From positions 1-11,511 of IMG/VR virus record IMGVR_UViG_2579778919_000009: DNA of 11,511 nt; one strand, written 5' to 3'. Of this stretch, positions 518 to 10,985 are shown in pieces. The DNA comes from a virus (lineage: Duplodnaviria > Heunggongvirae > Uroviricota > Caudoviricetes). The first letter of the stretch is position 1, and every line of letters starts with the position of its first letter. A program made the position numbers and the translations under genes. The notes below the pieces were generated by a model. It did not search any database. It saw only the letters and a list, made by a program, of their open reading frames with translations, and had not been told where the DNA came from.

Positions 518-2359
518 CTACTGCCGGGTCGCTTCGTTAGCTAAGAGCGGGCGCACGGCAGTAGCAGCCTGATTTAGCGCTCTTTCATAAGCTGGCGTTC
601 CAGCTTTAGTGTTTGCCAGACGTAAGAGCGCATTCCTTGCTGCTTTGGACTCATACAAACGCATCATTGCACCAAAACCAGCCTCAAGCCCCATTGATAC
701 TCCAAGAGTCGCAGTTGCGCCAATCGTCCTTATCCTGTTGGCTTGTGATTGCCCCGTCTGAGTTACTACATTTGCGGTGTCTGACCTTGCTGTTTGCTGT
801 AGAACTTCATGAAGAGCATCGAGCTCTTTCATGTGCTTTCCAGAAAAAATAGTGTTGTAAATTTCACCGCCTGACTGAGATTTAAGCTTATTAACTTCAG
901 TGATGAACTTGGCTGGAGAGTCACCGGCCTTTTCCGCTATTTTGCTGACGTAAGCTGCACGCATAGCATCTTTCCCTTTATCATCCAATGCGCTCCAGAT
1001 TCGTTTCACGTCAGATGGTTTTCTGCTTAATACAACGGTATTTATAAGTTCAGGACTGGCTTCACTGCTTGCCTTGTTGAGCTTGTTAGCAATGTTTTTA
1101 TTAAGCACCTTATTATAAACGTTTGCATAATCTGAATTTGCTTTAAGGTATTTTGCTGCGTCTGATGCACCGAGGTTTTTAGCAACTGCGTTACGAAGGT
1201 CTTTTGACATTGCATTCTCTACCATATTGGTAGCTGCTTTTGCCTGGTTGGGGAAGACCATAGCATCTCCCTGAACATTAGATCTAAATGCTGTTCTGTG
1301 CTGACGCAAGAGATCAAACGTAACATCCAAATCAGTTGCAGGGTTTGCTAATTCTTCGCGTAGGTTACGCAAGGATGTAAGCAGGCTTTGATTGGCAGAC
1401 GTCCCAAGCCGTTCCTGTCTTGCGATCGCTGTATTCAGAGCATTCATAGTGTTTGTGGTATCAACTGCGGCATTCCCCATTTTATTGGTGACGTCATTGA
1501 TAACAGCGCCAGCGGCATCCTTCCGTCCCCTTAACGTGGTGGTCAGAGATTTCACCACATCATCCGGGTTGTACTCACCAAAACGGTCAAAATAATTACT
1601 TACCAACTTACTACGCGTTGCATATTGCTCCGCTCGCTTTGAGCCTGTCCCGAGCAAAGCCCCCTCGGCATCCTGAGTAAGGCCGCGAGTGAAAGCATTT
1701 TTCGGCGGGATAACATCAGATGTCATTGGTGTCACGCCCATCGATTCTGATGTGGCAATTTTCTTCGCCACTTCTGGCGCAATATCACCTTTTATAGCCG
1801 TTATTCCACGCCCTATTCCCTTTGCTGCTGCGGAAAGAACCCCCTGAGCGGCAAGGTTAACTCCGGCATTTTTAGCTGCATTTTGTGCGAAATCGCCTTT
1901 CTGATTTGCGGCCTCTGCCAGTGATCCAATAGCCATGCTTCCTGCCGTTCCAACTCCTGGAACTAAATACCCACCAATTGTTTCACCGGCTTGTGCGTAT
2001 GGGTCTGTCGGTCTGTCTACTGGACGATAAACATCATCCAAAACCTTGGGTCCACCAAGCCCCTGACTGATTGCATTAATCAGACTTGCGCCGCCCTGCA
2101 ATACGTCAAATGGTATGTTTACCAGACCACGACCAGCCTGCTCTGCAATTTGCCCTGCACTTTGACCACCTGTGAGCCAATCGCCAGCTTGTTGCATCAA
2201 TGATGGTTCTTCACGTGCTGGTTCATTATTGGCCTGATTAACTGTTTGTTGCTGAACAGCCTGACCAGCAAAATACTCATCAATGGCGGTGCCAATATCT
2301 TCCGTGCTCGTACCATCAGGGAAGGTAAATGTCTTACCGTTTGCAGTTACTTTCATCAT
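518..2359 (-). CDS. Phage internal virion / DNA-ejection (DNA transfer) protein, P22 gp16-like, 613 aa
   Basis: Long ORF rich in Ala/Gly/Gln/Asn with a Gly/Ala-rich segment ([23 protein letters not shown]...). Size and position (after a gp20-like segment, before a small membrane protein gene) match the P22 gene 20 - gene 16 arrangement. Start ATG overlaps the upstream stop (ATGA), suggesting translational coupling. Family assignment is from memory, not a search. Confidence 0.6.
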
Positions 2360-3933
2360 TCCACCGTAAATTGAATGCCTGATTTTGAGGTATATGATCC
2401 GGATTGACTCTGCTGCTGTTGGGTATTTGTCGGTTGTTGGCTATTGCTCTGTTGTTGACTATTTGCAACACTTGAAACCACCAAAGCATCATAAACGCGA
2501 CCAGACTGACCACGTAATGAGTTATATTGGCCCTGCATTTTTCGCATTTTTGTTTCAGTAGCAGCCTTGGAATCACCAGGCTGAGGCAGGTACATTTTGG
2601 AATACTCCTGCATCTCTGGCAGAGTAATTGCTGCACCTGTTTCTGGGCGCAAAATTGCATACAAGGCGTCTCTCGCATTTACCATATATTGCTGCTCCGC
2701 TGGTGATAGGCTTAAATTTGCAATAGTCCCATCACCAAGAGAGCGATTTATTAATGCAACTCGCTTAGGGTCAATGCTTTTACTAAGCTGATTCATTGAG
2801 TCCATTGAATCTTTTAATCGCAAAGCAAATCCTGCCGCCTTCTTGGAACCCTCATTAGCCTTATCTATGATGCTTTGCGCTTGTGGCAAACTAATTGGTT
2901 TAATGCCATCACCAGATATAGGTTGGTTTAGTTTTCCGGCTTCCTCGCTGCCATCGGTGTAATACTTAGTTACCGAGCCATCAGGATTGGTTTCAACCTT
3001 AAGTAATTTCTTAGCATTGGGATTAATTCCCGCCGCTGCCGCAAATGCCGCTGCACCATCTGGATCCGCCTTTAACATTTGCGCGTACTGATTGTAATTC
3101 TGCATTGCGGCTGTTGGTGCATATGCTGACGTTAACGCATTTGCTCGGCTAATATCCTGCCCTCTCGCCTGAAGTGCTTCGCTGGCCTGATTGCTGCGGA
3201 TTGTCTCTGCCAGTCTGCCTCGGTCAATCTCACGACCAGCTATCTTGTCCTGAACAGCAAACGCCTTTTCTGGCCCAAGTGCACCGAGAGACATAGTAGT
3301 CAGCATGTGTGATAGCTGCTCTGGATTCTGGATACCTGTCTGAATCATCCAGTCAGCATTAGCCCCCACACGATTTAACCTGTCCTTGTTGTCAGTAATG
3401 AATTTACTGTAGGCTTCCGGTCCCTGAGAAAGAGCGACGTTAGCCCTCATGGCTAAATCGCCCATATCGTTGCGTTGCTGCTCATTAAGACCGGAAAACG
3501 CCTGTTGTGCCTGTGCAACAAACGCTGGATTTCCAGATCTGATACTGAGAACGTTTCGTCCAGCAACTGGAGAGAGTTCGACGGTGGCATCATTGCCCAT
3601 GCCGGAGGCGCTGGAGGTTTCGGCTGAGGATGGCACAGGGCATTTTCCTTTGACGAGCACCCTGCCACCATTATCAAGCTTGCGCCGAAGAGCATCATTT
3701 TCAGCTTTCGCATCAGCTAACTCCTTCGTGTATTTAGCATCGAGTGCATCAGCATCACGCTGGCGCTGCTGCATGTCAGTAATGGTGGCAGTCGCCTGCT
3801 TCAGCTCACTGACTTTTTTATCACGCTGCTCTTTGTAGGCGATGGCATTATCACGGTAATGATTGACCGCCCATGACAGGCAGACGATGATGCAGATAAC
3901 CAGAGCGGAGATAATCGCGGTGACTTTGCTCAT
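2356..3933 (-). CDS. Chimeric ORF: Rz-type i-spanin N-terminus (about 120 aa) fused in frame to about 400 aa of ejection-protein-like sequence (P22 gp20-like)
   Basis: N-terminus [30 protein letters not shown]...[19 protein letters not shown] closely matches lambda Rz as I recall it (TM anchor plus coiled coil). Rz is about 150 aa, but this ORF runs on for 525 aa with Ala/Gln/Asn/Ser-rich sequence and no Rz-like C-terminus. Rz start overlaps the R stop (ATGA). Confidence 0.6.
3453..3713 (-). CDS. Rz1-type o-spanin lipoprotein embedded in the +1 frame of Rz; C-terminus extended/altered by the same junction
   Basis: [22 protein letters not shown]... has a lipobox-like signal (VAGC) followed by a proline-rich [16 protein letters not shown] segment, as in lambda Rz1. 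It is 86 aa against about 60 for lambda Rz1; the tail after about residue 55 is unrelated. Confidence 0.55.
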
Positions 3934-4268
3934 ACCTCAACCTCTCTGACCGTTCCGCCTGCTTCTTTGAATTTTGCAATCAGGCTGTCAGCCTTATGCT
4001 CGAACTGACCATAACCAGCGCCCGGCAGTGAAGCCCAGATATTACTGCAACGGTCGATAGCCTGACGGATATCACCGCGATCAATCATCGGTAAAGCGCC
4101 ACGCTCTTTAATCTGCTGCAGTGCCACAGCGTCCTGGCTTTTCGGAGAGAAGTCTTTCAGTCCAAGCTGCTTACGGTAGGCATCCCACCAACGGGAAAGA
4201 AGCTGGTAACGTCCGGCGGCTGTTGATTTGAGTTTACAGGCATAACCCTGTACAACATCAGGAGGCAT
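3930..4268 (-). pseudogene. R: Endolysin R (lambda-type lytic transglycosylase) C-terminal fragment; N-terminal about 55 residues including the catalytic region missing
   Basis: KLKSTAAGRYQLLSRWWDAYRKQLGLKDFSPKSQDAVALQQIKERGALPMIDRGDIRQAIDRCSNIWASLPGAGYGQFEHKADSLIAKFKEAGGTVRE is near-identical to the C-terminal about 100 aa of lambda R from memory. The first 11 codons (MPPDVVQGYAC) are unrelated and are encoded by the sequence that forms the upstream/RBS region of the opposite-strand replication gene. Confidence 0.85.
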
Positions 4269-4273
4269 CCAGT

Positions 4274-5101
4274 ATGGGGTATGTCTCTATACACCGCCAG
4301 TTTATGGACAGCAGGCTCTATAAGGACTCTCAGGCAGTACATCTTTGGCTTCACTTAATCCTCAAGGCTAATCACGAATCTACTGTCGTCAATACGGATA
4401 TCGGTCCGATAACTGTTGATCGCGGTCAGATGATAACTGGACGCCCGTCGCTGGTCAGAGAAACATTCATCCCCGACAACAAAGTTCGGAGCTTATTACG
4501 GACTTTTGAGTCGAAAGGTATGCTTAATATTTGCTCGATGGGGAAGAAATTTAGCCTGTTTACAATCGTTAAATATGACGATTTTCAGGCAAAAAATTGT
4601 CCAACGGTTGTCCAACAGTTGTCCAACGCAAACACCAGTAATGGTGCGGCTCTCAGCGGAGATTGTCCAACGGTTGTCCAACGGTTGTCCATAAACAATA
4701 ATATAAATAATATCTCTAATACTGACGTATTAGAGAGTGCTACAGCAGACAAAAAGTCTGACAAGAAAAAACCTTCCGTCAGCTGTCAGGATGTTGTCGA
4801 TGCTTACCACGAAATCCTTCCTGAAGCGCCAAGAATCCGCGCACTGAATGACAAGCGTAAAAACCAGATCCGAACGTTCTGGCGCAAAGCCGGAGTGATA
4901 ACCCGCCAGCTTGACGGGCATGGGTTCACGATGCAGGACTGGAGAAATTATTTGAGCTACGTAGGCGAAAATTGCCGATGGATGTTCGAAGAGCGTCCAA
5001 ACCATCAACGCGGAACTGTCTGGCACAAAAAGGGATTTGATTTCCTGCTTAACGATAATACCTACCTGAAAGTTCGTGAGGGTGAACACGATGACCGATA
5101 A
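4274..5101 (+). CDS. Replication initiator protein (lambda O / P22 gp18 functional class) with origin iterons inside its coding sequence
   Basis: Good RBS (GGAGG about 8 nt upstream of ATG 4274). Origin-type iterons and an AT-rich region sit mid-gene, as in lambda O. The stop overlaps the start of the downstream helicase gene. Confidence 0.7.
   Translation: MGYVSIHRQFMDSRLYKDSQAVHLWLHLILKANHESTVVNTDIGPITVDRGQMITGRPSLVRETFIPDNKVRSLLRTFESKGMLNICSMGKKFSLFTIVKYDDFQAKNCPTVVQQLSNANTSNGAALSGDCPTVVQRLSINNNINNISNTDVLESATADKKSDKKKPSVSCQDVVDAYHEILPEAPRIRALNDKRKNQIRTFWRKAGVITRQLDGHGFTMQDWRNYLSYVGENCRWMFEERPNHQRGTVWHKKGFDFLLNDNTYLKVREGEHDDR
4597..4695. repeat. Origin iterons: two clusters of three tandem 11-bp repeats (TTGTCCAACGG / TTGTCCAACAG / TTGTCCAACGC, then TTGTCCAACGG x2 and a degenerate TTGTCCATAAA)
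   Basis: Direct tandem repeats read at about 4597-4629 and 4663-4695, separated by about 33 bp. They encode the repetitive linker CPTVVQQLSN...CPTVVQRLS of the initiator. Confidence 0.75.
4696..4740. other. AT-rich putative DNA-unwinding region with short palindrome CTCTAATA-N6-TATTAGAG next to the iterons
   Basis: Sequence ATAAACAATAATATAAATAATATCTCTAATACTGACGTATTAGAGAG lies immediately downstream of the iterons, the typical lambdoid ori layout. Confidence 0.5.
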
Positions 5102-6146
5102 TTTTTATGCGCCGCCCCATAGCATCGAGGCAGAGCAGGCGGTGATTGGTGGATTGCTTCTGGATGATGACAGCAGTGAGCGCGTCCAGAAGGTTCTGGC
5201 GATGCTGAAGCCTGATTCATTTTACAGCCGGCCACACAAAATCCTTTTCGAAGAAATAACCAGAATGCACCGGGAGCAAAAGCCAGTAGATGGCCTGACG
5301 CTTTTCGATGAACTGGAGCGTAAATCGTTAACTGTGTCTGTTGGCGGTTTTGCTTATATCGCTGAGATCGCAAAGAACACGCCAAGCGCAGCAAACATCG
5401 TTGCCTATGCAATGCAGGTTCGTGAAACCGCAATGGAACGCTACGCCATCAACCGTATGACTGAAGCGACGGAATTGCTCTATTCCCGCAACGGAATGAC
5501 TGCAACGCAGAAGTACGAAGCTATTCAGTCGATTTTCACGCAACTGACAGACCATGCAAAAACCGGATCGCGTCGCGGCCTTCGTTCATTTGGTGAGGTC
5601 ATGGAAGACTGGGTTAGCGACCTTGAGAAGCGATTTGACCCGTCAGGCGAACAACGAGGAATGAGCACAGGGATCCCATCGCTGGACAGGATGCTGTCAC
5701 CGAAAGGTCTGGTGAAAGGCTCTCTGTTTGTCATTGGCGCTCGCCCTAAGATGGGGAAAACGACGCTATACAGCCAGATGGCAATCAACTGCGCAGTGCA
5801 TGAGAAAAAGCCCGCTCTGATGTTCAGCCTTGAAATGCCAGGTGACCAGATACTGGAAAAACTGGTAGGGCAGAAGTCTGGTGTTAACCCGAATATTTTT
5901 TACCTTCCGGCGACAAATGACGCTGATGACGGCTATCAGGGTGATTACGATGGTGACTTCAACAGGGCGATCGAAACAGCCAATCGCTTGAGTGAAATCG
6001 ACCTGCTTTACATCGACGACACGCCGGGATTATCTCTGGCTCAAATCGTCAGCGAAAGTCGTCGAATCAAGCGAGAAAAAGGATGTGTTGGCATGATTCT
6101 GGTCGATTACAGGGAGAAGGCGCATGAGACTCGAAAGCGTAGCTAA
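5091..6146 (+). pseudogene. DnaB-family replicative helicase (P22 gp12 class), C-terminal about 110-120 aa missing
   Basis: N-terminal DnaB signature NFYAPPHSIEAEQAVIGGLLLD, Walker A GARPKMGKTT, Walker B-like MILVDY. The ORF stops about 10 codons after Walker B, with an unrelated tail (REKAHETRKRS) that overlaps the Q start region. Likely true start is ATG 5091 (the ORF track starts at 5076). Confidence 0.7.
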
Positions 6147-6603
6147 ATTTCATTCGCCAAAAAGCCCGATGATTAGCGACTCACCACGGGCTACAGCTTC
6201 TGACTCTCTTTCCGGTACTGATGTGATGGCTGCTATGGGGATGGCACAATCACAGGCCGGATTCGGGATGGCTGCATTTTGCGGTAAGCACGAACTCAGC
6301 CAGAACGACAAACAAAAGGCTATCAACTATCTGATGCAATTTGCACACAAGGTATCGGGGAAATACCGTGGTGTGGCAAAGCTCGAAGGAAATACTAAGG
6401 CAAAGGTACTGCAAGTGCTCGCAATATTCGCTTATGAGGATTATTGCCGTAGTGCCGCGACGCCGGGTGCAAGATGCAGAGATTGCCACGGTACAGGCCG
6501 TGCGGTTGATATAGCCAAAACGGAGCAGTGGGGGAGAGTTGTTGAGAAAGAGTGCGGAAGATGCAAAGGTGTCGGCTATTCAAGAATGCCAGCAATCAGC
6601 TAA
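6124..6603 (+). pseudogene. Q: Late-gene antiterminator Q (lambda Q type), C-terminal about 50 aa missing/replaced
   Basis: MRLESVAKFHSPKSPM...CRDCHGTGRAVDIAKTEQWGRVVEKECGRCKGVGYSRMP matches lambda Q from memory, including the CxxC...CxxC zinc motif. It ends after about 159 aa (lambda Q is about 207). No PR'/qut or holin follows. Confidence 0.75.
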
Positions 6604-6605
6604 CT

Positions 6606-6766
6606 TAACGACGCCCATGTTTCACTCCTACTTTGGCTAGTCTGTAAACACCAACAAGGCGCTCTGCGAACGCCCTGTTATTTGCTGCGGCTACCACTAA
6701 TCCCTCAGGTGAATCAGGGTGTCGAATCTCTTCTTTTTCCTGGTATTTCTTACGACGTTTTGTCAT
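6606..6766 (-). CDS. Small basic ORF (53 aa, MTKRRKKYQEKEE...) occupying the position of the 5' end of the replication gene downstream of cII/oop
   Basis: SD-like GGAGT about 4 nt upstream of the ATG. The start codon overlaps the -10 of the oop-type promoter on the other strand, which is where the O start sits in lambda. It ends at the junction with the inverted Q fragment. No recognisable family. Confidence 0.3.
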
Positions 6767-6769
6767 AAT
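6741..6769 (+). promoter_or_regulatory. Po-like promoter for oop RNA (TTACGA - 17 nt - CATAAT)
   Basis: Sigma70-like hexamers with 17-nt spacing, placed just upstream of the oop-homologous sequence. Confidence 0.5.
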
Positions 6770-6776
6770 TACTCCT

Positions 6777-6853
6777 GTAGATTGATCCAGTAATGACCTC
6801 AGAATTGCATATCAATTTGCTTAAAATCCTCGGTGGCGGCCGGGGATTTTTTC
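6777..6853 (+). ncRNA. oop: oop-like antisense RNA overlapping the 3' end of cII, ending in an intrinsic terminator
   Basis: GTAGATTGATCCAGTAATGACCTCAGAATTGCAT...CCTCGGTGGCGGCCGGGGATTTTTTC closely resembles lambda oop RNA as I recall it (the block GATCCAGTAATGACCTCAGAA appears identical). Terminal hairpin CCUCGG/CCGGGG plus U-tract. Antisense to the last about 18 codons of cII. Confidence 0.7.
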
Positions 6854-7095
6854 TTTGTGATTCCATCCAATGCATACTTAAAAGCCCTGCTAATCGGACT
6901 GATGTCTGATGCCATTCCGAAAGCACACAAGACCGAAGCAATAAACCTCCAGTCCGTTCTGCTTATCTTCGATTCATGACAGCCAATCATCTTTGCCAGA
7001 CCGCGCTGGGTAAGCGTTGACAGGTTGATGAGTAAATCAGTTTCAGCGCGATCAATTTCTCGCTGTGTTGGCTTGCTATAACTTGCTTGTGTCAT
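6799..7095 (-). CDS. cII: CII-family transcriptional activator
   Basis: HTH region (LAKMIGCHESKISRTDWRFI) and C-terminus (KKKSPAATEDFKQIDMQF) resemble lambda CII (KSQISRWKRDWI, NKKRPAATERSEQIQMEF). Sits downstream of cro and nutR, as in lambdoid phages. Confidence 0.8.
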   Translation of the reverse strand: MTQASYSKPTQREIDRAETDLLINLSTLTQRGLAKMIGCHESKISRTDWRFIASVLCAFGMASDISPISRAFKYALDGITKKKSPAATEDFKQIDMQF

Positions 7096-7106
7096 TTGTT
7101 AATTTT
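7073..7106 (+). promoter_or_regulatory. PRE-like CII-dependent promoter (TTGC-N6-TTGC around the -35 region, -10-like TAATTT), reading antisense through cro toward cI
   Basis: TTGCTATAACTTGC direct-repeat tetramers with 6-nt spacing lie inside the 5' end of cII on the opposite strand, the same layout as lambda PRE. Confidence 0.45.
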
Positions 7107-7179
7107 CCAATAGTGAATAGTTAGTTGAAAGGTATGCGTGGAAACGCATATGGCCTTAGTTGGTCAGATATCTTGGGGC

Positions 7180-7225
7180 TCGCTTTGTCAGCGACGTAGG
7201 ACGAATGTCCATTGTGAAAAGAGCG
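7180..7225 (-). promoter_or_regulatory. nutR: boxA (CGCTCTTTT) followed by a boxB hairpin of the P22 type (loop GACAAA)
   Basis: On the - strand, just downstream of the cro stop: CGCTCTTTTCACAATGGACATTCGTCCTACGTCGCTGACAAAGCGAGC. The boxB stem-loop matches the P22-type GCGCUGACAAAGCGC rather than lambda GCCCUGAAAAAGGGC. A 7-bp stem hairpin at about 7133-7150 may be part of tR1. Confidence 0.55.
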
Positions 7226-7232
7226 GTGTTAC

Positions 7233-7433
7233 TTATGCAGTTGTTTTTTTGTTACTTGGGAAGGGCTTTATTTCTTCCGCATAAACGCTTCCATCAGCGT
7301 TTATAGTTAAAAAAATCTTTCGGCCTGCATGAATGGCCTTGTTAATCGCGCTTTGATATACGCCGAGATCTTTAGCCGTCTTGGTTTGCCCAAAGCGTAT
7401 TGCATAATCTTTCAGGGTTATGCGTTGTTCCAT
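7233..7433 (-). CDS. cro: Cro repressor
   Basis: 66-aa product [66 protein letters not shown] is essentially lambda Cro (one or two substitutions, from memory). Confidence 0.95.
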
Positions 7434-8247
<814 letters not shown>

Positions 8248-8278
8248 TTGTTTTATTTTTCACGTAATAGGATGATTT

Positions 8279-8620
8279 ATGACACAATTTCAACTTGCAT
8301 TAATCGCTAGAGAAGTTGATGGAGAAGTCATCCATCTTCGCACCAAAGACGGATACATCAATGCCACCGCGATGTGCAAGTCTGCGGGGAAGCTACTTGC
8401 TGACTATACACGACTAAAAACAACACAAGATTTTTTTGATGAATTATCACGCGATATGGGGATTCCCATATCGGAGTTAATTCAATCATTTAAAGGCGGA
8501 AGAGCAGAGAATCAAGGGACTTGGGTTCATCCAGACATCGCAATTAATTTAGCTCAGTGGCTATCTCCAAAATTTGCAGTGCAAGTATCGAGATGGGTGC
8601 GTGAGTGGATGTCAGGTTAA
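8279..8620 (+). CDS. KilA-N domain protein (113 aa) in the rexA/rexB position, co-transcribed with cI
   Basis: YINATAMCKSAGK...ENQGTWVHPDIAINLAQWLSPKFAVQVSRWV fits the KilA-N domain pattern as I recall it. SD AGGATGA upstream of the ATG; only about 31 nt separate it from the cI stop, with no terminator between. Confidence 0.65.
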   Translation: MTQFQLALIAREVDGEVIHLRTKDGYINATAMCKSAGKLLADYTRLKTTQDFFDELSRDMGIPISELIQSFKGGRAENQGTWVHPDIAINLAQWLSPKFAVQVSRWVREWMSG

Positions 8621-8659
8621 AGAGCGCCTGCCGAACTCCCTATCCACCTTAAGCGGTAT

Positions 8660-8965
8660 ATGACAAACCGAGGCAGAGTTCCTCATACGCACTTTTCTAT
8701 GCTTAATGAACTGACGTTTAACTTGGTTGCGCCACTTGAACAGGCCGGATATACGCTGCCAGAAAAAATGGTCCCTGATATTTCAGAGGGTAGGGTTTTC
8801 TCGCAATGGCTCCGTGACAACCGGGGGGTTGAGCCGAAGACATTCCCAACATATAACCATGAGTACCCAGATGGCCGGACATTCCCGGTACGTCTATACC
8901 CAAACGAATATTGCAGATTTCAAACAATACTTCAACGAAGTGTGGCTGCCTCAGTACGCTCCTAA
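8660..8965 (+). CDS. Hypothetical protein, in the same frame as the KilA-N ORF and separated from it by a single TAA; probable frameshift near 8890-8910, after which the alternative frame continues to 9038
   Basis: 8279 and 8660 are in the same frame, with 13 sense codons and one TAA (8618-8620) between them. Weak RBS before 8660. The overlapping ORF 8727..9038 has a protein-like C-terminus (NIADFKQYFNEVWLPQYAPKYFAERDQRALTLIEKIML). Confidence 0.45.
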   Translation: MTNRGRVPHTHFSMLNELTFNLVAPLEQAGYTLPEKMVPDISEGRVFSQWLRDNRGVEPKTFPTYNHEYPDGRTFPVRLYPNEYCRFQTILQRSVAASVRS

Positions 8966-9498: not shown

Positions 9499-9666
9499 AT
9501 GACACGCAGAACTCAGTTCAAAGGCAATTCACGTTCTCGTCGTCGTGAGCGTTTAAAGGCAAAGGCATTAGCTAACGGCGTACTGGCCCGCGAAGAAGCA
9601 ATAAGTTCAGAAGTATTACACCGCCCTACGCCATCATCAATGTTGCGGCGATCGGCATCACCTTAA
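9499..9666 (+). pseudogene. N-type antiterminator, N-terminal arginine-rich motif retained (about 35-40 codons), remainder lost at a deletion junction
   Basis: Strong SD (CAGGAGG) before ATG 9499. MTRRTQFKGNSRSRRRERLKAKA resembles the P22 gp24 arginine-rich motif (GNAKTRRHERRRKLAIER, from memory). Only 55 codons against about 100 for N proteins; the 3' part overlaps the RecT frame. Confidence 0.55.
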
Positions 9667-10850: not shown

Positions 10851-10985
10851 ATGAAAAAGACTCCATGGGAGAAATGGGAAGTCGATTTCTTGCGCGAAGT
10901 AGCGGCGACAAGGCCATATAACAACAAACCCTGTCGCTGCCACTCGCGCAGCAAAATCAGAGGTAAGGAGATCAAGACTTACGGC
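10851..10985 (+). other. Short remnant ORF (MKKTPWEKWEVDFLREVAATR...), 5' end of an unidentified gene running out of frame into int-derived sequence
   Basis: ATG 10851 opens a 44-codon frame. From about 10905 onward the DNA is int sequence read in a different frame. Confidence 0.25.

Follow-up and report, generated by a model that had tools for sequence, protein, structure and literature searches.

An inverted and truncated replication-antitermination block in a decayed lambdoid prophage of Escherichia coli

The IMG/VR virus record IMGVR_UViG_2579778919_000009, a stretch of 11,511 nucleotides that was analysed over its full length (hereafter the window), belongs to a lambdoid prophage in which the replication initiator, the helicase and the antiterminator Q are encoded on the strand opposite to the immunity genes on one side and the lysis genes on the other. 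The question raised by this locus is whether such a gene order is real and, if it is, whether it reflects a native or programmed arrangement or a scar of prophage decay. An earlier reading of the sequence (hereafter the original prediction) had proposed an inversion followed by deletions. The element is a decayed lambda-immunity, P22-like prophage fixed at the lambda attachment site (att-lambda) in one E. coli lineage, and it is highly probable that the block is a fossil rearrangement in this defective prophage, produced by microhomology-mediated illegitimate recombination, and that it represents no working device.

Orientation of the block relative to intact relatives

The window was compared by local blastn with phage HK542 and with the prophages of E. 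coli W46, D7 and CH4804. According to the HK542 annotation, the native gene order is cro-cII-gp39-O-P-nin-Q-PR'/qut-S-R-Rz on a single strand, and this one-strand order is found in all five intact references (HK542, LR536431, W46, D7 and CH4804). The segment of the window extending from the O leader into Q lies on the strand opposite to both the region encoding cro, cII and a small open reading frame (ORF) (6605-7433) and the region encoding Rz and the truncated endolysin gene, R' (2356-4268) (Table 1). The AT skew likewise flips sign at about 4200 and about 6600, at both borders of the block. Across all references, the Rz-R match starts at 3541 or 3704 and ends at 4235 (87-96% identity), the O and helicase match extends over 1877 nucleotides (98.5-99.1%), and the match to Q and its leader starts at 6108 or 6113 (95-98%), with the W46, D7 and CH4804 prophages giving the same boundaries as HK542. 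As the alignments have E-values of 0, chance is of no concern for the inversion.

Both the alignment strands and the AT skew therefore bear out the predicted inversion of the replication and Q genes relative to the immunity and lysis genes. Of the extent proposed for it, 4235 to 6800, the start was accurate; the inverted part stops at 6595, and an end at 6800 takes in the small conserved ORF, which lies outside the inverted block and has its native place between cII and O. The O-helicase module (98.5-99.1%), the small ORF and the Q and R alleles are shared with phages HK542, HK75, mEpX2 and Sf6 and with E. coli prophages such as that of CH4804. In all of these the genes from cro to Rz are complete and encoded on one strand, unlike in the present element.

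Table 1. Features, junctions and HK542 matches of the window, in order of position (percentages are nucleotide identities of the HK542 matches; residue ranges refer to the encoded protein)
Feature	Position	Strand	Counterpart or evidence
sieA, partial	first in plus-strand reading order	+	ORF list, domain hits
P22 gp16-type ejection protein	between sieA and Rz::gp20	-	ORF list, domain hits
Rz::gp20 in-frame fusion ORF, 525 amino acids	2356-3933	-	Pfam Phage_lysis (29-142), Inj_translocase (130-262)
Junction D, Rz::gp20 fusion	about 3532-3541		blast boundaries 3532 (L035), 3541 (L030)
Rz, R match	3704-4235	-	HK542 35538-35028, 87.8%
R' chimeric endolysin ORF, 112 amino acids	3930-4268	-	PHROG endolysin over residues 12-111
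Junction A	4233-4235		R (HK542 35028, minus) to O leader (HK542 28788, plus); three-way alignments, four references
Inverted block, 2362 bp: O, ori, truncated helicase, truncated Q	4234-6595	+	blastn against HK542, W46, D7 and CH4804; AT skew
O, P match	4234-6110	+	HK542 28788-30664, 99.1%
O-like replication initiator ORF, 275 amino acids	4274-5101	+	phrog_345, E = 1e-80, profile positions 25-292 of 297
ori iterons, two clusters of the 11-bp unit TTGTCCAACGG	4585-4702	+	repeat search
Truncated DnaB-type helicase, 340 native residues and 11-residue tail	5091-6146	+	Pfam DnaB (8-112), DnaB_C (190-344)
Junction B	6108-6110		helicase codon 340 to Q leader; alignment with HK542 (P side) and CH4804 (ninI-Q side)
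Q match	6113-6595	+	HK542 33483-33964, 95.4%
Truncated antiterminator Q, 157 of 207 codons, 2 new codons and stop	6124-6603	+	Pfam Antiterm, E = 6e-39
gp39 and O start match	6586-6791	-	HK542 28797-28592, 97.6%
Junction C	6594-6595		Q (HK542 33964, plus) to small ORF/O leader (HK542 28789, minus); alignments
Small conserved ORF, 53 amino acids, HK97 gp53-like	6605-6766	-	phrog_1331, E = 2e-37; HK542 gp39
cII	6799-7095	-	Pfam Phage_CII in related loci
oop-like antisense terminator hairpin	6823-6850	+	terminator scan
cro, cI match	7219-8248	-	HK542 28199-27170, 96.4%
cro	7233-7433	-	ORF list, Pfam Cro
Lambda-type PR promoter, TTGACT-17-GATAAT	7458-7486	-	promoter scan, 10 of 12 matches
Intact lambda-type cI repressor, 237 amino acids	7534-8247	+	Pfam HTH_3 and Peptidase_S24
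KilA-N ORF, 113 amino acids	downstream of cI, within 8279-8965	+	ORF list, domain hits
N fragment, truncated RecT, Gp157-family gene, 3' part of lambda int	after the KilA-N ORF in reading order	int +	ORF list, domain hits
Junction E	9628-9629		N fragment (arginine-rich N-terminus) to N-terminally truncated RecT; overlap AC
Junction F	10913-10916		region downstream of Gp157-family gene to 3' 602 nucleotides of lambda int; overlap GCCA

Nucleotide structure of junctions A, B and C

Three junctions, none of which contains filler bases, join the block to its surroundings and its parts to one another. At junction A, the R gene (...GATTTGAGTTT) meets the O leader (TTACAGGCATAACC...) with an overlap of TT (4234-4235), 25 nucleotides upstream of an AGGAGG motif and 39 nucleotides upstream of the ATG at 4274. 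The AGGAGG (4260-4265) belongs to the O-like initiator itself, which is without the 21 upstream codons annotated in HK542. The resulting R' ORF consists of 11 new codons, antisense to the O leader, followed by K58 to the end of the endolysin (by comparison with the CH4804 R protein); the cut thus falls at codon 57/58, where the original prediction had fused R to the O leader. The R' protein had no Pfam match, and it lacks the N-terminal region with the catalytic glutamate (E19 in lambda R).

At the opposite border, junction C joins Q (...AAGAATGCCAGCAA) to the small-ORF side ((ATGCCTGT)AATCAGCTAAC...) with an overlap of AA, which stands inside an imperfect match of eight out of ten positions (ATGCCAGCAA and ATGCCTGTAA). 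As anticipated, a 3'-truncated Q here abuts the small minus-strand ORF beside oop and cII, with Q ending after codon 157; of the E. coli matches with a query coverage of 80% or more, all 1232 stop at window position 6595. Junctions A and C have their O-side break at one and the same TT (HK542 28788-28789). Both ends of a single O-side break have therefore been rejoined elsewhere without loss, which is the signature of a true, reciprocal inversion break. The partners on the other side of the inversion are Q (HK542 33964) and R (HK542 35028), and the 1063 bp between them are absent. This interval, which has the same length in CH4804 (L030 3489-4551), comprises Q codons 158-207, PR', qut, the holin gene and R codons 1-57 according to the HK542 annotation.

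Junction B lies within the block, where the helicase side (...GGTCGATTAC) is joined to the ninI-Q leader (...CAGGTAC, followed by AGGGAGAAGGCGCATG) with an overlap of TAC. Relative to HK542, positions 30665-33482 are lost, which removes nin entirely together with the last third of the helicase gene. Native helicase sequence ends at residue 340, directly after the Walker B sequence ...GMILVDY, and the DnaB_C match covers only profile positions 1-141 of 255. The expected fusion of the helicase, just after Walker B, to the ribosome-binding region of Q with removal of nin was thus recovered.

Occurrence of the junctions in independent assemblies

An obvious concern is that the block results from a chimeric contig or a mis-oriented repeat, as short-read assemblies can mis-join prophage repeats; beyond this general point nothing speaks for an artefact. 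Identical 40-mers spanning junctions A, B, C and D (the last described below) occur in loci from at least 16 independent samples, derived from ENA, NCBI, JGI and Logan and built with different assemblers. The carriers include the isolates GCA_000482045.1, GCA_965285305.2, GCA_017732115.1 and GCA_045581885.1, the last with a contig of 5.34 Mb, as well as several ENA gut metagenome assemblies, Logan assemblies, the JGI sample 3300029076 and two further metagenome contigs. The rearrangement is also found on chromosome-scale contigs, all junctions on that of 5.34 Mb, and junction A together with a derived deletion on another of 5.23 Mb. Furthermore, the sequence of the block occurs only once in the locus and is no repeat. 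We regard the probability of misassembly, which the original prediction had named as a ground for its own rejection, as negligible.

The rearrangement is fixed in many isolates and absent from the bulk of reference collections. Exact protein look-up among indexed blocks of public assemblies returned 318 blocks for R' (112 amino acids), 206 for the truncated Q, Q' (159 amino acids), and 273 for Rz::gp20 (525 amino acids); overall the element is indexed in roughly 200-300 blocks, infant-gut metagenome assemblies included. Not one of the junctions occurs in the 5,426 complete RefSeq E. coli genomes, the matches in 3,034 records breaking at 4234, 6110 and 6595. A megablast of positions 3800-7200 against 50,697 phage records gave 501 matching records, none of which spans the query in one piece or carries a junction, and the best 26 of the 501 all stop at 4234 and 6110. 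The exact pattern of junction A had no match in 185,579 species-representative genomes. Among the 2.9 million contigs of IMG/VR, the patterns of A, B and C matched one contig only, a copy of the present element, and two JGI metagenome contigs were found by a scan for junction B, both with all junctions. Intermediates carrying A, B or C alone were found neither in IMG/VR, nor in the JGI contigs scanned for junction B, nor in the contigs encoding the three junction-spanning proteins.

Origin of the rearrangement

The junctions are best explained by the following course of events. The ancestor would have carried a rightward operon cro-cII-small ORF-O-P-nin-Q-PR'-S-R-Rz. After a single cut at the O leader, made in the course of illegitimate recombination with 2-nucleotide overlaps, each of the two ends would have received a new partner, the left one Q codon 157 in reverse orientation and the right one R codon 58. 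The O-to-Q segment would thereby have been flipped, and the 1063 bp separating the two partner codons lost. Either a replication template switch or the rejoining of three breaks could have given A and C in one event, while the helicase, cut after Walker B, would have been joined to the Q leader by a separate deletion with a 3-nucleotide overlap. Because the single O-side break is common to both outer junctions to the nucleotide, the flip and the loss between Q and R probably constitute one event. The proposal of an inversion followed by deletions thus stands for the separate nin deletion, while the Q-R loss is more simply ascribed to the inversion event itself.

Microhomology is apparent at A (TT), B (TAC), C (AA), E (AC) and F (GCCA), with no long homology. 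For random blunt joins, overlaps of at least 2, 3 and 2 nucleotides at A, B and C would have a joint probability of about 1e-3 by our own calculation. Of the short inverted repeats or microhomology that the original prediction had proposed to look for at the borders, the latter was thus found as 2-nucleotide overlaps, while inverted repeats occur at chance level only. In their seamless 2-3 nucleotide overlaps, lack of long homology and joining of three breakpoints, the junctions resemble events of the microhomology-mediated break-induced replication and fork stalling and template switching (MMBIR/FoSTeS) type. Unlike marked replicative events, the product contains no templated insertions or duplications, and the mechanism is read from this product.

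A course of several steps, with a clean reciprocal inversion from the O leader to a site in the Q-R interval and later deletions trimming the Q/R side, is possible, if rather unlikely. The element has often undergone deletion (B, D, E and F, 420 bp in locus L005 and 1232 bp in the L012 type), and the L012-type deletion, 1 nucleotide from junction B, shows that old junctions or their context can be reused. Two-step paths were considered with the inversion preceding a deletion at either junction and with a deletion preceding the inversion. Each needs a second event ending within 2 nucleotides of the first junction with no O-side base lost. Only the nin deletion clearly calls for an event of its own; moreover, no isolate or metagenome contig has A, B or C separately. 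Three observations nevertheless weigh against our account of a single microhomology-mediated inversion event. With no intermediate found in the collections searched, the order and number of events are not directly visible, and the 1232-bp deletion starting 1 nucleotide from junction B weakens the one-step argument. In addition, no structural cause is evident, as the hairpin TACAGG-CATAAC-CCTGTA at the O-side break has a z-score of only -1.1 against shuffled sequence and none of the five ancestral break sites has a secondary structure better than shuffled sequence.

Explanations by dedicated recombination systems fare less well. Transposition of an insertion sequence (IS) or transposon within the molecule, giving an inversion with an adjacent deletion and followed by loss of the mobile element, is very improbable. 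Comparable remnants do carry IS elements, such as IS1 beside cII in 1008S19 and ISSen4 in strain 81, an IS5-type transposase (Pfam DDE_Tnp_1) stands beside the element in GCA_900450495.1, and the TT at both outer junctions may be read as a 2-bp duplication, although it is equally explained by microhomology. However, the window contains no IS gene, the borders show no target duplication, and in every copy junctions A, B and C are free of IS sequence, IS ends and filler bases. Moreover, replicative inversion leaves two IS copies, the precise loss of both of which is very unlikely. As to a programmed invertible segment, driven by an invertase of the Hin/Gin/Cin/Pin kind or by an integrase, or an order native to some phage group, we attach practically no probability to either. 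Only the neat size of 2.36 kb suggests the idea; the window encodes no serine invertase, its sole recombinase relic being a truncated tyrosine integrase 4.5 kb away, and the inverted repeats at the borders are at chance level, none standing at both 4234 and 6595. The borders interrupt R and Q, and all assembled loci read (L004-L018, L022-L029 and L032-L034) have a single orientation. No phage record has such an order, and no intact phage or prophage was found with the gene order of the block, the second ground on which the original prediction would have been withdrawn.

Two of the five ancestral break sites, in the O leader and the helicase, lie inside the motif GATTAC (HK542 28786-28791 and 30659-30664; window 4232-4243 and 6105-6113). 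The later 1232-bp deletion starts in the same GATTAC, and the product of junction B, GATTACAGGG, comes close to the O-leader sequence in its native form, GATTACAGGC. In 7.9 kb of HK542 there are 8 occurrences of GATTAC or its complement, giving a rough, post hoc chance of about 5e-4. A single replicative template switch at a fragile site defined by its sequence, as the origin of the inversion, the Q-R loss and possibly also the nin deletion, nevertheless seems improbable. Were it true, it would suggest that the phage replication module contains a motif-linked site of recurrent breakage or stalling, possibly tied to in-situ firing of the nearby ori in a non-excisable prophage, and only if these recurrent breakpoints prove real does the locus pose a new biological question.

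Predicted consequences for phage functions

The element cannot excise, since int is cut to its 3' 602 nucleotides and xis is gone. No helicase sequence is left beyond Walker B. The last 50 residues of Q are missing, as is its target PR'/qut; the holin gene has been lost, and R is without its N-terminus (residues 1-57). As judged from these gene remnants, replication, late transcription and lysis would be dead, and cI immunity is probably kept. An O gene with its own AGGAGG and the ori iterons remain in the window.

A single strong promoter match, the lambda-type PR, was found. Its direction leads through cro, cII and the small ORF and on into the block, antisense to the genes there; on that strand a simple scan detected only weak terminator-like matches inside the block. 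The promoter scan found no credible plus-strand promoter upstream of the block, a single match of 9 out of 12 positions at 3863-3891 being at chance level. O, the truncated helicase gene (P') and Q' would accordingly be cut off from PR, and any PR transcript would run antisense through Q', P' and O, in agreement with the antisense transcription foreseen for Q and the helicase.

The element, its host and its chromosomal site

The gene order of the element is constant in every related contig read, and it is flanked throughout by ybhJ-ybhC and ybhB-bioA, a position that corresponds to the lambda attachment site; its chromosomal flanks share 99.7-99.9% identity with E. coli. The window is 100% identical to contig ATJZ01000024.1, the proteins of which are named in the sources as those of E. 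coli SCD1. Copies from at least 16 samples are at least 99.8% identical and have the same junctions, together with private frameshifts and deletions. The att site with its host flanks, the truncated excision, replication, lysis and assembly genes, and vertical persistence with decay all characterize the element as a cryptic lambdoid prophage. Shigella or another species had been weighed as host because the element is absent from the 5,426 complete E. coli genomes, and was rejected given the identity of the flanks and the labelling of the carriers as E. coli. A literature search for strain SCD1 and for a description of a ybhC/ybhB prophage yielded no paper on the present element.

Rac, DLP12 and Qin of E. 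coli K-12 are cryptic lambdoid remnants fixed in the chromosome, which have lost functions by deletion and rearrangement and keep few genes. The present element is similarly a fixed lambdoid remnant that has lost excision, replication, lysis and morphogenesis genes; unlike them, it resides at att-lambda, retains intact cI, cro and cII and a P22-type module, and carries O, P' and Q' inverted. The lambda-B prophage of E. coli B (REL606, BL21) is likewise a defective, lineage-characteristic lambdoid remnant, of about 12 kb, at the ybhC-ybhB site (PMC4395058). Identity with lambda-B was rejected, as the latter has full int and xis as well as terminase and tail-fibre fragments, and has neither an immunity/replication region nor the inversion.

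The locus follows a familiar pattern of prophage decay and adds a further case to a known class of features rather than revealing a new type of system. Its value lies in providing a nucleotide-resolved case of a non-excisable prophage that loses replication, late transcription and lysis and keeps its repressor. It also bears on annotation, as gene callers label the chimeric ORFs 'endolysin', 'replication protein P' and 'antitermination protein Q', all three of which are truncated. The junction sequences are lineage-specific and could serve to mark clones of the carrier E. coli lineage.

Other gene content and ongoing decay

Beyond the block, the element keeps a P22-type module of tailspike, ant, mnt, arc, sieA and ejection-protein genes. 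At junction D, the reading frame of Rz, kept up to residue about 142, continues into the C-terminal portion of an ejection protein of the P22 gp20 type, and the fusion ORF is open in every copy read. This deletion removed everything natively located between Rz and gp20, presumably the head and packaging genes. Junction F entailed the loss of xis and the int N-terminus. The remaining junctions of the window also use overlaps of 2-4 nucleotides; the whole element has therefore been pared down by illegitimate recombination.

Decay has continued neutrally since. A sub-lineage including GCA_900450495.1 and GCA_037022885.1 (L012, L017, L025 and L029) has a secondary deletion of 1232 bp (window 6110-7341) that runs from the helicase into cro with an overlap of TTA and starts 1 nucleotide from junction B. 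It derives from the window type, since it shares an 11-bp iteron deletion with L007, which has all three junctions. The new junction of this deletion forms a perfect palindrome, CGATTAATCG. The iteron copy number varies among near-identical copies, with changes of -11 bp (L007, L012 and L017), +11 bp (L014 and L027) and -59 bp (L013, L032 and L033), and the 420-bp deletion of L005 spans 5061-5480. O is frameshifted or altered in its iterons in several relatives, which fits neutral decay, and cI has its full length (237 amino acids) in the window, as in every related locus read except one.

An Rfam scan of the window gave no family over its threshold, oop included. The region 8279-8965 also holds an ORF of 101 amino acids besides the KilA-N ORF, and related loci have there an ORF of 55 amino acids with a weak BstA_C match; together the three look like a split BstA-type abortive-infection gene. 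Strain 81 (L003) and ECCWS199 (L036) harbor independently decayed P22-like remnants at the torI/dsdC site, the losses extending from gp20 to cI in strain 81, which also has an ISSen4 insertion, and from gp20 to N in ECCWS199.

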